A program made the position numbers and the translations under genes. The notes beneath the pieces are model-generated. The model saw nothing but the letters and a program-made list of their open reading frames with translations, did no database searches and had not been told where the DNA came from. DNA of 63,194 nucleotides, filler included, from Candidatus Woesearchaeota archaeon (GTDB lineage: Archaea > Nanobdellota > Nanobdellia > Woesearchaeales > J072), in the NCBI GenBank assembly GCA_003695265.1. It is 9 parts of 9 records of this genome, joined end to end, with 100 filler letters (N's around TTAATTAATTAA, not from the genome) between each part and the next. Parts side by side here need not be neighbours in the genome. Positions count along the whole stretch, not along the records: positions 1 to 12,464 come from RFII01000094.1; 8 more parts are not named here. The stretch is one strand, 5' to 3'. Numbering within the stretch: the stretch's first letter is position 1; every line of letters starts with the position of its first letter. Shown piece after piece: positions 1 to 6,865 of the stretch.

Positions 1-396
1 CTCTGGCGAGGCGCATGTAGCCCTTGAACCAGAGGTGTCCGAATGGGACTTCCCTTTAAAATCCGAAAGGATGGGGGACGCAGGGAATTGAAACATCTTA
101 GTACCTGCAGGAAAAGAAACCAACAGGGATGCTGTTAGTAAGGGCGACTGAAAGCAGCACAAGGCAAACCGAATCTGCTGCAGAAATGCAGTAGGCATGT
201 GGTGTTTGGACCGCAACATGGGGCCTCGTGAGTGATCTGAAGTCTTCTGGAAAGAAGCACCGCAGAGGGTGATAGTCCCGTAAGAAAAGCTCAAAGGTTC
301 CTAGCGAGTTCCAGAGTAGCGCCTCTTGGATATGAGGTGTGAATGTGGGAGACATCAACTTCCAACCTTAAATACGTTTTGAGACCGATAGCGAAG

Positions 397-427
<31 letters not shown>

Positions 428-1066
428 TTGATAGGGAGTGAAAAGACCCTGAAACCTAACAGTTACAGTGAGGTACTGCTCGAAAGAGTTGTGCCGTGCG
501 TTTCGAATAACGTGCCAGGGAGTTTAGATCTGTGGCAAGATTAACCTGAAAAGGGGTAATCATAGGGAAACCAACAAACTCGCAGTTTTACGAGGAGTGG
601 GGTGTGAAAGCGCCTAAAGTCACAGGTCTATGACCCGAAACCGGACGATCTAACCCAGGGTAGGGTGAAGCGGAGGTAAAACTTCGTGGAGGCCCGAAGA
701 GGTTCTACGGGCAAGTGTTCTTCTAACCTTGGGCTAGGGGTGAAAAGCCAATCGAGTTCGGTGATAGCTGGTTCCTGCCGAAGTTGGCCGAAGTCAAGTC
801 TCAGACGAGACAGCTAGAATGGTAGAGATACGGATTGGGGGTTTAGGCCTGGAAACAGGTCGGCTCCTCGTCCAACTCCGAATATTCTAGCGTTGTAGAC
901 TCTGAGAAACGGGGGCTCGGGGTAAGCTTGAGTTCCGAGAGGGGAACAACCCAGACTGCAGTTAAGGCCTCTAAGTGCTGATTAAGTGTTAAAGGGTGAA
1001 CAGTGTTTACAGCCATAGACAGCGAGGAGGTTGGCTTAGAAGCAGCCATCCTATAATAAGTGCGTA

Positions 1067-1109
1067 TACTTGGCTACGTTTCTTTAAGAAATGGAGCCTT
1101 GCTCGCAAG
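1067..1109 (+). other. 43-nt BHB intron in 23S H44 loop (about E. coli 1095)
   Basis: Interrupts GCGTA|ACAGCT; central helix TGCG/CGCA with 3-nt bulges TA|T and AG|A. Confidence 0.85.
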
Positions 1110-2260
1110 ACAGCTTACTTGTCAAGGTTGTAAGCCTGGAAGATGGACGAGGCTAAATCAGCCGCCGATACTGCAGACAACCGAAAGGTTAGTGGTAGGC
1201 AGGCGTTCTGGAAGAGCAGAAGCATCTCTGAGAAGAGGTGTGGATCTTTCAGAAATGAAAATCCTGGTGAGAGTAAGAGCAGAGTAGTGTGAGAATCACT
1301 ACCACCAAAAGGGCAAGGGTTCCTTGACAATGAAGTTCAGTCAAGGGTAAGTCGATCCTAACCAAGCTCGTAATGGGAGCAAAGGGAAAGGGAAGCAGGT
1401 TAATATTCCTGCACTATTCAAATATACGCGGCGACGCAAGTCGTGCTTCCGACGCTTCCGGATAGGCTAACACAAACCATCGTTTGTGTCAACTGTGATA
1501 AATCAGGGGAGTATTGTAATGATGAGAACCTGATTAAACGCAGGATGAGTATGGCGTATGCTGTATTTAGCTGATTCCAGGAGCCCGTGAAAAGGGAGCA
1601 CGAAAAGATTTTGAATAATCGTACCCAGAACCAGTACAGGTGCCCCTAGGTGAGAAGCCTAAGGTGTGAGGGATTAATCTAATTGAGGGAATTCGGCAAA
1701 TTGGCCCCGTACCTTCGGAATAAGGGGTCCCTGCGGTAGTTGTTGCATGACAGCCATTGCAGGGCTCAGTGACTAGGGGGGTCCGACTGTTTAACAAAAA
1801 CTTAACTTCCTGCTAGCCCGCGAGGGTGTGTATAGGAGGTGAAGCCTGCCCAGTGTCAGTACTTAAAACTCCATTCCAATGGAGCTAAGAGCTGACAAAC
1901 GGCGGGGGTAACTATAACTCTCTTAAGGTAGCGTAATACCTTGTCGTTTGAATGACGACTTGCACGAATGGCGTAACGAGATCCCCACTGTCCCCAATTA
2001 GAATCCCCTGAAAACTCCTTTCCGGTGCAAAGGCCGGAGATCTCCAGTGGGAAGCGAAGACCCCGTGAAACTTTACTGTAGCCTGTAGTTGCGATGTGAG
2101 GCTTGGTGTGCAGTGTAAGTGGGAGCTGCTAAGTCACAGTCGTCAGGTTGTGAATAGGCGTCGATGAGACACCACTCTCCAAATCTTATGTCGCTAACTC
2201 TCAACGAGAGGACATCTATAGGTGGACAGTTTGGCTGGGGTGGCACCCTGCTGAAACGAT

Positions 2261-2314
2261 TTTGGGAGCTTGCTAAAGCAGTCAAAAACAGATTCAAGCA
2301 AACTCTGGCGTTAT
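2261..2314 (+). other. 54-nt BHB intron in 23S H81 loop
   Basis: Removal restores CCCTGCTGAAACGATATCAGCAGGG; central helix AACG/CGTT, bulges AT|T and AT|A. Confidence 0.88.
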
Positions 2315-2352
2315 ATCAGCAGGGCCCAAAGGTTGGCTCACCCGATTCAGAA

Positions 2353-2392
2353 ACATTTGGCGAAGGCAAATATGCCAGCGCCAAAGCTGAGC
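2353..2392 (+). other. 40-nt BHB intron in 23S H84 loop
   Basis: Removal restores CCCGATTCAGAAATTCGGG; central helix TCAG/CTGA; intron hairpin TTTGGCG/CGCCAAA. Confidence 0.85.
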
Positions 2393-2560
2393 ATTCGGGG
2401 TAGAGTGCAAGAGCAAAAGCCAGCCTGATTGGGTTTCTAATAAGATGAAATCCAAACGCGAAAGCGTGGTCTAGCGAACTCCTAAACCTCCTTGATGGGG
2501 GTTAGGAATGACCGAAAAGTTACTCCGGGGATAACAGAGTTGTCGCGCCCAAGAGCTCAA

Positions 2561-2599
2561 AAGCTTTTGTCAAGGCTTACTTGGCGAAAGTGTGGGTTG
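2561..2599 (+). other. 39-nt BHB intron in 23S H89 loop
   Basis: Removal restores AAGAGCTCAAATCGAC; central helix GCTC/GGGT with G-U pairs; 12-bp intron hairpin. Confidence 0.85.
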
Positions 2600-2656
2600 A
2601 TCGACGGCGCGGCTTGCTACATCGATGTCGGCTCTTCCTATCCTGGCCGTGCAGAA

Positions 2657-2702
2657 ATCTGCCCAGCTCACTTTTTGAGGGGTGAACTGGGTTTGATTGT
2701 AT
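2657..2702 (+). other. 46-nt BHB intron in 23S H91 loop
   Basis: Removal restores GGCCGTGCAGAAGCGGCC; central helix GCAG/TTGT; intron hairpin GCCCAG..CTGGGT. Confidence 0.83.
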
Positions 2703-3252
2703 GCGGCCAAGGGTGGGGGTGTTCACCCATTAAAAGGGATCGTGAGCTGGGTTCAGAACGCTGTGAGGCAGTTTGTTTGATATCTACTGGAGATGTTCAG
2801 TGTCTGAGGGGAAGGGCCTTCTAGTACGAGAGGAACGAAGGCTCGAGGCCACTGGTCTACCGGTTATCCGATAGGGTACGCCGGGCAGCTACGCCTTAAG
2901 GGATAAGTGCTGAAAGCATCTAAGCACGAAACCCTCCTCGAAAAGAGACACAGGAACTCCCATAAAAGATGGGTTTGATGGAACCGGTGTGTAAGCTTCA
3001 AGGTAACGAGAAGTTTAGCATGCGGTCCCCAATCGTTCCGCTTCAACTTGCTTTTTGCACGGCTTTTCTTTTTTATTCTAATTTTTTAATGTTGTTTAAG
3101 AGTCGGAAGAAAAACGAATTTTCTTGGATAATTGTATTAAATTTGAGCAAAGTACTGTTTTTTCATTCTCAAAAAGATTGTTAGCAAATTTAAATGTTAA
3201 TTTAATAATCTATCAAAACACTTAAATCCAACCTTGGATTACTTATTTTAAA

Positions 3253-4236
3253 ATGATATGCTTGGGTATTGAGAGCACAGCACACACGTTCGGCGTTGGC
3301 ATTGTGAATGATAAAGGCCAAATCCTTGCTAATGAAAAGGATGCTTATACCACAAAAAGTGGAGGTCTCATACCAAACAAGCTAGCAGAGCATCACGTTG
3401 AGTGCTGTGATGCTGTTTGGAAAAACGCTTTGAGAAAAGCAAAGCTCTCAATGAAAGACATTGATGTTGTTTCTTATTCTGCTTCTCCTGGATTAGGGCA
3501 TGCTTTGCGGATTGGAGCAATGTTTGCGAGAAGCATAGCAAAGATTTACAAAAAGCCTTTGGTAGGGTGCAACCATTGCATTGCGCATCTTGAGATAGGT
3601 AGGATGATTTCAAGAGCAAAGGATCCTGTGCTGCTTTACGTTTCAGGCGTGAACACACAGGTAATTGCCTATGAGTCAGGAAAATACAGGATTTTTGGAG
3701 AAACATTAGATCAAGGAATAGGTAATTTTCTTGACAGTTTTGCAAGACATATCGGATTGGGGTTTCCAGGTGGTCCAAAAATAGCAGAGCTTGCCAAGAA
3801 AGGAAAGAATTACATCGAACTGCCTTACACTGTTAAAGGAATGGATGTCAGCTTCGGCGGCTTGTTAACAAATGTGAAGCAAAAATATGATTCTGGAAAA
3901 TACAAAGTTGAAGACATCTGCTTTTCAATACAGGAAACTGTTTTTGCGATGCTGACAGAAGTCAGCGAAAGAGCTCTGGCTCATTGCAACAAGGACGAGC
4001 TTGTTCTTGGAGGAGGAGTTGCGTGCAATACCCGCCTGCAAGAAATGGTCAAGATTATGTGCAGTGAACGAAAAGCAAAATGTTACATACCAGAAAACAG
4101 GTTATTGGTGGATAATGCAGCCATGATTGCATGGCTCGGATTAATAATGTTTAAAGCTGGCAATTCTGTAAAGCCGAAAGAAGCTGGGATTAATCCTTAT
4201 GAAAGAACAGATGATGTAAGAGTGAATTGGAGATAA
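3253..4236 (+). CDS. kae1: tRNA N6-adenosine threonylcarbamoyltransferase Kae1 (stand-alone, no Bud32 fusion)
   Basis: LGIESTAHT, NHCIAHLE, GETLD, GGVACN, DNAAMIAW motifs. Confidence 0.96.
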   Translation: MICLGIESTAHTFGVGIVNDKGQILANEKDAYTTKSGGLIPNKLAEHHVECCDAVWKNALRKAKLSMKDIDVVSYSASPGLGHALRIGAMFARSIAKIYKKPLVGCNHCIAHLEIGRMISRAKDPVLLYVSGVNTQVIAYESGKYRIFGETLDQGIGNFLDSFARHIGLGFPGGPKIAELAKKGKNYIELPYTVKGMDVSFGGLLTNVKQKYDSGKYKVEDICFSIQETVFAMLTEVSERALAHCNKDELVLGGGVACNTRLQEMVKIMCSERKAKCYIPENRLLVDNAAMIAWLGLIMFKAGNSVKPKEAGINPYERTDDVRVNWR

Positions 4237-6612: not shown

Positions 6613-6671
6613 GGGGGTTCAAGGGGGCGCAGCCCCATTGTAAAAATTAATCTCAAAAAAATATGCTCAGC

Positions 6672-6756
6672 AGTCATGTGGTGTAGCAACCTAACTGGTT
6701 ACGCTCGGTTAACACGCAAATGACAAGTGGGGTGTAAGTAAGCTTTAACCCCACTA
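6672..6756 (+). ncRNA. tRNA-like 5' fragment with BHB intron, followed by a hairpin (possible split tRNA piece or pseudogene)
   Basis: AGTCATG-TG-GTGT-AGC|18-nt insert|CGGTTA-ACAC gives a D-arm; no anticodon or T arm follows. Confidence 0.4.
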
Positions 6757-6775: not shown

Positions 6776-6865
6776 AGCCCTGTGGTGTAGCGGCCAATCA
6801 TCTCGGACTCTGGCAGCTTTTGCTGGAGAAATCCGAGGACCTCGGTTCGAATCCGAGCAGGGCTA
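6776..6865 (+). tRNA. tRNA-Gln(CTG) with 17-nt canonical 37/38 intron (6814-6830)
   Basis: Acceptor AGCCCTG/CAGGGCT, anticodon stem TCGGA/TCCGA, GGTTCGAATCC, BHB CTCT/GGAG. Confidence 0.95.

Follow-up and report, generated by a model that had tools for sequence, protein, structure and literature searches.

Five candidate BHB mini-introns in the 23S rRNA gene of a Woesearchaeales-like archaeon

Inserts in the 23S rRNA gene

The window, a 63,194-nucleotide stretch of DNA in which contigs of one archaeal genome are joined by N spacers, begins with contig C46 (its first 12,464 bases), which carries the single 23S rRNA gene copy of the assembly (C46:1-3052). The genome amounts to 1.06 Mb in 103 contigs and is 94.6% complete. 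The host is probably a Woesearchaeales-like DPANN archaeon, from an order that holds many small-genome families, and its 23S rRNA gene is 76-81% identical to those of two Candidatus Woesearchaeota records. The contig start truncates the gene at its 5' end, where ~75 model positions are missing, and the 23S span minus the five inserts is 2830 nt. No 16S rRNA gene was found in a search of the genome contigs. A Kae1/TsaD gene (PF00814, window 3253-4236) lies directly 3' of the 23S rRNA gene, and the 5S rRNA gene, which is without an insert, is on contig C64. Thus, the rRNA genes appear to be unlinked on the downstream side of the 23S rRNA gene. At gathering score, Rfam recognized only the 23S rRNA gene and one tRNA over the window. 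The features of interest are as follows.

1..3052, + strand: 23S rRNA gene, host of the inserts; Rfam RF02540, model 76-2987, 2504 bits
1067..1109, + strand: insert in the GTPase-associated centre loop (H44); 43 nt, after E. coli A1095; central helix 1061-1064/1104-1107
2261..2314, + strand: insert in H81; 54 nt, after E. coli ~2272; central helix 2255-2258/2309-2312
2353..2392, + strand: insert in the H84 loop; 40 nt, after E. coli 2310; central helix 2347-2350/2387-2390
2561..2599, + strand: insert at the H89 tip; 39 nt, after E. coli 2477; helix 2555-2558/2594-2597, with two G-U pairs
2657..2702, + strand: insert at the H91 tip; 46 nt, after E. coli 2534; helix 2651-2654/2697-2700, with three G-U pairs

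The first-pass annotation had marked these five places as inserts whose removal restores the conserved sequence. In a MAFFT alignment of the window 23S rRNA gene with those of 35 relatives and E. coli, all five were clean gaps in the homologues, and excision restored the conserved sequence to the base in 5/5 cases. E. coli positions 1095, ~2272, 2310, 2477, and 2534 are taken here to lie in helices H44, H81, H84, H89, and H91, respectively. The inserts sit in invariant stretches, not in a variable region, with 38-1151 nt between neighbors.

A 4-bp central helix exactly at each junction had also been claimed. To score it, pairs were counted between exon positions -6 to -3 and intron positions -6 to -3, the latter counted from the intron end. 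At the register originally given, the helix had four of four possible pairs (4/4) in all five inserts, whereas none of eight slid registers reached 4/4 and shuffled inserts did so in 1.2-3.1% of draws. The inserts that begin at 2261, 2353, and 2561 have alternative cuts that are equivalent in sequence, and 4/4 pairing was obtained only with the cut originally stated. This result upholds the claim for all five junctions.

The helices that close the two bulges vary among the five junctions. The H81 motif is a strict hBHBh' motif, and two others are near-strict: H89, with two exon-side pairs, and H84, with a U-U beside the 3' bulge. However, the motifs at H44, with only one exon-side pair, and at H91, with no adjacent exon-side pair, are relaxed on the exon side, and a proper exon-side helix is missing at these two sites in all homologues. 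Relaxed motifs of the hBH, HBh', and BHL types are recognized within this class of intron. The description of each insert as a hairpin stood for four inserts but only weakly for the fifth. Against mononucleotide shuffles, folding z scores were -2.4 for H44, -4.3 for H84, -3.8 for H89, and -4.1 for H91. The H81 insert had a z score of only -1.2 and is therefore a weak hairpin.

Predicted probabilities for the central pairs were 0.78-0.97 for H44, H81, H84, and H89 and 0.06-0.19 for H91. The predicted local fold at H91 favors another structure, and the BHB form lies 3.1 kcal/mol above it. The case is weakest for this insert, which is likely a BHB intron of the relaxed type.

Occurrence of inserts in relatives

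The order sample comprised 135 loci from 134 genomes. It combined 35 of 39 first-matched relatives, four short matches being excluded, with 100 places taken from the 150 that a second search listed; 140 further matches of that search lay beyond the listing. Places excluded from the second set were genomes already included, unpublished genomes, several loci short of upstream sequence, and the last few entries.

Inserts were present at the 2477 site in 32/121 relatives and at the 2534 site in 21/129, but they were rare at ~2272 (3/116) and 2310 (4/116) and occurred in none of the 105 order loci that cover the A1095 site. Alignment to related LSU genes, which had been suggested as a check on whether the sites are new, thus showed two of the sites to be common in the order and the other three to be rare in or absent from the sample. 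All relatives' inserts at ~2272, 2310, and 2477 had 4/4 helices, as did 19 of those at 2534, the other two having 3/4. Pooled over the four sites, 58 of 60 inserts in relatives kept the complete helix. Slid registers gave 4/4 in at most 4 of 33 cases. As a negative control, the group I-type inserts at position 1931, which are present in 25/110 relatives, are 265-798 nt long, and lack a BHB helix, were scored in the same way, and 4/4 pairing was found in 0/25. At the H91 site, helix formation was predicted in 15 of the 21 relatives. Inserts at E. coli 2013 (which contains N), at E. coli 2166, and in 5' variable regions were judged not to be BHB inserts.

The H44 site was searched more widely with a pattern that specified 20-50 extra bases and demanded no pairing. 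It matched 3 loci in species genomes and 13 in metagenomes. One match, in a Ferroplasmaceae record (DAUP01000061.1), was excluded because it consisted of a brief duplication that included two N and probably arose during assembly. All 15 remaining loci (13 distinct) had 4/4 helices, one of them via a change on both sides, and the six inserts at other sites within the matched loci were also 4/4 in 6/6 cases. A phylum-wide pattern for the H89 site matched insert-free 23S rRNA genes and chance sites; it was too loose and therefore was used in no count.

Changes in the exon are matched by changes in the junction bases of the intron. For example, at the 2477 site, exon GTTC was found with intron GAAY in 5/5 inserts, which lie in four separate tree lineages, and exon GCTC was found with intron G[AG]GY in 28/28, the window insert included. 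There were three different exon/intron 4-mer pairs at ~2272, each a matched swap, and further matched swaps were TTAG/CTAA at 2310 and AGCG/CGCT at 1095. The insert bodies in relatives were 23-137 nt long (median, 38 nt), and those at ~2272, 2477, and 2534 had little or no similarity to the window inserts (best z, 3.2). The H84 insert was homologous in sequence to the four 2310 inserts of relatives (similarity z, 6.3-10.1). The uniform 4/4 pairing at the H44 loci and the covariation of junction bases with the exon are the strongest evidence obtained, and they suggest that selection maintains the exon-intron helix rather than the insert body. Locus counts overstate the number of events because kin are not independent.

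Candidate inserts were also seen at other 23S sites in loci L163, L173, L140, L039, and L161. They include inserts at ~784 and ~1323 (L163), at ~281 and, with 1055 nt, at ~471 (L173), at 2566 (genome G335), near 1934-1938 (164 nt; G038), and at 2477 (238 nt; L161). These are leads only, since for several the score is the highest of 13 registers tried. In another relative (locus L103, G372:C18:6940-10820), E. coli position 2450, next to the catalytic A2451, is followed by an insert of 678 nt. This insert has a 4/4 BHB helix and a LAGLIDADG_3 open reading frame (ORF), the makeup of a classic mobile BHB intron. Also in this gene, the 1931 site holds a 766-nt insert with a LAGLIDADG_1 ORF, and the H89 site (2477), 27 nt from 2450, holds an insert of 80 nt.

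Sequencing runs

DNA run X1 holds 57% of the words sampled from the genome. A contig from this run spans 1037-1337 and contains the H44 insert with 0 differences; its 30 letters on the left side are one too few for the bridging rule applied. None of the X1 contigs listed covered the other four inserts, and depth at 99% likeness was zero over 2307-2373. Thus, support from DNA reads, which the first-pass annotation had named as a point on which the inserts could fail, was obtained for the H44 insert but not for the other four.

One 170-nt X1 contig matches 2396-2538 with 1 difference, and past the match it reads through an H84 that lacks an insert and has another stem. It may come from a close strain without the intron or from another organism. 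Run X1 also has a 255-letter loose end behind 1930 that looks like the beginning of a group I-type 1931 insert. If this end and the insert-free H84 contig belong to a near-identical strain, then intron content differs between very close relatives.

Six RNA runs (X2, X3, X7, X16, X18, and X4) yielded only short conserved 23S pieces of other organisms. Joints in these runs at 2559/2600 and 2656/2703 were rejected as splicing of this gene because the RNA contigs come from other organisms, in which the homologues are uninterrupted.

Splicing enzymes and tRNA genes

The genome encodes one EndA of 190 amino acids (PF01974 and PF02778, C17:456-1028), and phmmer found no second subunit in the genome. 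Five relatives also had one EndA match each. The Tyr, His, and Lys residues align with those of the M. jannaschii enzyme, and among solved structures the N. equitans alpha subunit is the closest. The catalytic Tyr-His spacing is ten residues, as in M. jannaschii; the 5-6 residues inserted in the N. equitans and ARMAN-2 enzymes are missing, as is any N-terminal insert. RtcB is also encoded (PF01139, on contig C87).

Only 8 tRNAs in the genome were above the Rfam cutoff, whereas a stem-pairing search rebuilt 24 distinct tRNA genes. The T loop was interrupted by an insert of 15-139 nt in 15 of these, 13 of the 15 at a 4/4 BHB register; the other nine, with an intact T loop, were 85-174 nt long. 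Thus, EndA has many further candidate substrates in this genome. No significant sequence was shared by the rRNA and tRNA introns, with longest common words of 8-10 nt, in comparisons that included a genome-wide BLAST in which two of the five rRNA inserts were among the matches listed.

ARAGORN called a Pyl(CUA) tRNA at window 6776-6865. With a 17-nt intron at 6814-6830, the anticodon is CUG, and this tRNA is likely tRNA-Gln(CUG), because only that register gives a 4/4 BHB helix.

One family of 92-nt T-loop introns was found at C44:10878-10969, C84:3586-3677, C65:3-94, C26:6467-6558, C85:5100-5193, C30:1050-1138, and C33:6098-6185; four of these loci are 97-98% identical, and the other three are 77-89% identical. 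Related sequence occurs on C76, C75, and C27 as well as at C44:19342-19412, where it borders the 5' end of the match to RNase P RNA. On the basis of these copies, the family may be repetitive at the DNA level and also serve as an intron. Some T-loop inserts appear to be nested.

Pieces that resemble tRNA 5' ends lie just upstream of intact tRNA genes at window 6668-6755, C84:3282-3365, and C32:3343-3513. Part of the window piece recurs within D-loop inserts in tRNA genes of C13, C22, and C75, and the hairpin at the end of the piece recurs on C84 and C27. Such pieces may represent split-tRNA halves, pseudogenes, or traces left by moving introns.

Insert number and genome-wide intron load

Among the 104 relatives whose 23S sequence spans all five sites, 64 had no mini-insert, 29 had one, 8 had two, 2 had three, and 1 had four, counts that include a sixth site, at 2566, met once. 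The five in the window gene are therefore the highest number, and the earlier judgment that this density is unusual stands to that extent. However, mini-introns as such are common in the order, with at least one in 40/104 of these relatives.

The distribution of the inserts was compared with a tree of 101 insert-free 23S sequences (a quick IQ-TREE analysis, in which deep branches are weak). There were 21 changes for 27 carriers at 2477 (shuffled-label mean, 23.9) and 17 changes for 17 carriers at 2534 (shuffled-label mean, 15.9), with gains and losses counted together. Each of the rare sites had 4 changes for 4 carriers, and the carriers were scattered, close to shuffled labels. The hosts of the H84 intron family lie far apart on the tree. 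Homology in such distant hosts would fit either lateral transfer or an ancient origin followed by many losses.

Inserts at different 23S sites co-occur beyond chance. With the window excluded and kinship ignored, the observed sum of squares was reached in 0/20,000 permutations (p < 0.0001), and genomes with three or more inserts were in excess (p 0.0024). The number of Rfam-visible tRNAs was also lower in genomes with more inserts. In a sample of 60 hand-picked relatives, with at most 67 candidates scored per genome, the median was 9 tRNAs in genomes with at least two 23S mini-inserts (n=12), 17 in those with one (n=14), and 28 in those with none (n=34). The gap persisted among genomes at least 94% complete (6 versus 32, p 0.0002), though the Rfam count is a proxy: interruption of the missing tRNAs was demonstrated in the window genome only, and the high-load genomes are more fragmented. 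The five-insert count tracks the genome-wide intron load.

A broader scenario can be put forward tentatively. Woesearchaeales-like archaea might undergo bursts of ORF-less BHB introns in both rRNA and tRNA genes, the introns spreading between lineages without a homing endonuclease, and a single-subunit EndA without the known long loops might cut relaxed motifs such as those at A1095 and H91, which would overturn the rule that enzymes of this sort require strict ones. The co-occurrence of 23S introns, the low Rfam tRNA counts, the scattered H84 family, and the near-identical T-loop introns point toward such bursts, but we think the scenario as a whole more doubtful than probable.

Nature of the inserts

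The gene sequences suggest that all five inserts are, with very high probability, ORF-less BHB introns that would be cut by EndA in the two bulges and sealed by RtcB, with release of small hairpin RNAs. This is also the class proposed in the first-pass annotation, and the conserved register, the covariation, and the presence of EndA and RtcB are all consistent with it. EndA would cleave after the second base of each bulge, RtcB would ligate the exons to give a normal 23S rRNA, and the hairpin RNAs released would probably be circular. Removal would be expected early in 50S assembly, because in H44 the BHB helix takes up exon bases that presumably are paired in the mature helix. The introns might be near-neutral passengers, repeatedly gained and lost, that pile up in genomes passing through a general burst of stable-RNA introns. 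They might be gained by gene conversion from the intron-bearing rDNA of other lineages or by hitch-hiking with a homing-endonuclease intron. The proposed cleavage, ligation, and timing follow established archaeal biochemistry (PMC7714728, PMC4090602, and PMC5829648).

Other classes of element were considered. A search with one LAGLIDADG family, PF14528, had no match in the genome, and inserts of 39-54 nt are not homing introns. They are also too short for a group I intron, whose catalytic core, with helices P1-P9, takes up at least about 200 nt. C/D box guide RNAs were rejected: there was no box C in the five inserts, the one CTGA is the BHB helix itself, and the longest antisense match of an insert to the 23S rRNA was 6-10 nt, versus the 10-12 nt of a guide element.

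It is possible that some or all of the inserts are expansion segments retained in the mature rRNA, with the H91 insert the likeliest to be retained or slowly spliced, but we consider this quite improbable. Retention would be in keeping with the predicted H91 fold, in which the native helix is kept and lengthened by the insert, and the sections of PMC5829648 on relaxed motifs suggest that an EndA without long loops may splice such motifs poorly. However, a retained segment would have no reason to keep a 4-bp exon pairing at a fixed offset through compensatory changes, and true variable-region inserts, at E. coli 2166 in two genomes, show only 1 of 4 pairs. Even among the H91-site relatives, the great majority have the complete helix, most are predicted to form it, and the carriers are scattered on the tree. 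The conserved register, the compensatory changes, the patchy distribution on the tree, and the presence of both EndA and RtcB in the genome lead us to favor BHB introns over expansion segments. A marginally less probable alternative is that EndA cuts the inserts but some junctions stay unligated, giving a fragmented mature 23S rRNA like that produced by bacterial intervening sequences. All five sites are loops, which might in principle tolerate a nick. Yet RtcB is encoded, removal at the stated cuts leaves the conserved sequence exact at every base, and the inserts occupy invariant functional loops, whereas bacterial intervening sequences occupy variable helices.

That the inserts are artefacts of assembly or binning is scarcely credible, although the assembly is in 103 contigs, no listed X1 contig covers four of the inserts, one X1 contig has an insert-free H84, and one H44-pattern match proved to be a duplication with N. 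The same junctions are occupied in dozens of independent genomes, in four of which the insert is homologous to the H84 insert. Furthermore, the H44 insert is identical in the X1 contig, and an artefact would not follow the BHB register. The evidence that runs against excision of BHB introns by EndA includes the predicted H91 fold, the 3/4 pairing in 2/21 of the H91-site relatives, and relaxed motifs in a genome whose EndA lacks long loops. How a single-subunit EndA that lacks the known long loops could cut the relaxed H44 and H91 motifs is a puzzle.

If the inserts are BHB introns, five cut-and-seal events in the most conserved LSU loops, including the A1095 loop, would have to precede a working ribosome in this archaeon. 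The inserts found across the order offer a natural set of strict and relaxed substrates for testing the single-subunit DPANN EndA and a tractable system for studying how ORF-less archaeal introns are gained. Such inserts also have practical consequences. They disrupt rRNA probes and primers, and standard tools miss the tRNA genes that carry them, as the difference between the Rfam and rebuilt tRNA counts illustrates.

Comparison with known introns

Archaeal 23S introns are known near positions 1085, 1927, 1952, and 2552, none of which is one of these five sites. Staphylothermus marinus has ORF-less 23S introns of about 55 nt, whereas Desulfurococcus, Pyrobaculum, and Aeropyrum have 23S introns with homing endonucleases. 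The window inserts share with these a 23S host gene and BHB junctions and differ in lineage. A literature search that lay outside most subscription journals found no listing of the five sites and no survey of BHB introns in Woesearchaeota 23S rRNA genes.

Group I introns provide another point of comparison. In LSU genes of archaea recovered from metagenomes, Nawrocki, Jones and Eddy (2018; PMC6125680) noted BHB introns alongside group I introns, and they placed Woesearchaeota among the hosts of LSU 1931 group I introns. The main text of that paper gives no BHB positions or counts, which are in its Figure 1, and the supplement as available is without the term "BHB." The gene is the same, and relatives of the window archaeon share the 1931 inserts; in contrast, the window 23S rRNA gene has no group I intron.

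The non-canonical and transposed tRNA introns of Thermoproteales and ARMAN-2, which have (alpha-beta)2 and epsilon2 EndA, respectively, resemble those of this genome in their genome-wide BHB load, their 59/60 T-loop and D-loop positions, and the near-identical copies across tRNA genes, as far as the relevant parts of PMC3239211, PMC5829648, and PMC4090602 describe them. In those parts of PMC5829648 and PMC3239211, the long EndA inserts of N. equitans and ARMAN-2 are tied to cleavage of relaxed motifs. The EndA of the window genome is unlike these enzymes in its single 190-amino-acid subunit, its M. jannaschii-like spacing, and its lack of the 5-6 residue insert.

The closest parallel is with the small (<50 nt) hairpin BHB introns that Jay and Inskeep (2015; PMC4496867) described in 16S rRNA genes of Thermoproteales, Desulfurococcales, and Aigarchaeota. 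As presented in the portions of that paper considered here, those introns, like the window inserts, are ORF-less hairpins with BHB junction cores at conserved loci, with unrelated bodies at a single locus, and their excision is attributed to the tRNA splicing endonuclease, as proposed here. The same portions describe co-conversion beside a homing-endonuclease intron in Pyrobaculum 16S rRNA (Pog.S1205/S1213), whereas the window 23S rRNA gene has no neighboring homing-endonuclease intron that could explain co-conversion. Judged by their sequences, the window introns thus appear to belong to an already known kind, the small hairpin class of archaeal BHB rRNA introns. Three features stand out: no gene in the order sample has a higher count, the count is linked to the intron load of the genome as a whole, and relaxed motifs occur with an EndA without long loops; and compared with the introns in PMC4496867, as presented there, these are in the 23S rRNA of a Woesearchaeales-like DPANN archaeon, five in one gene.
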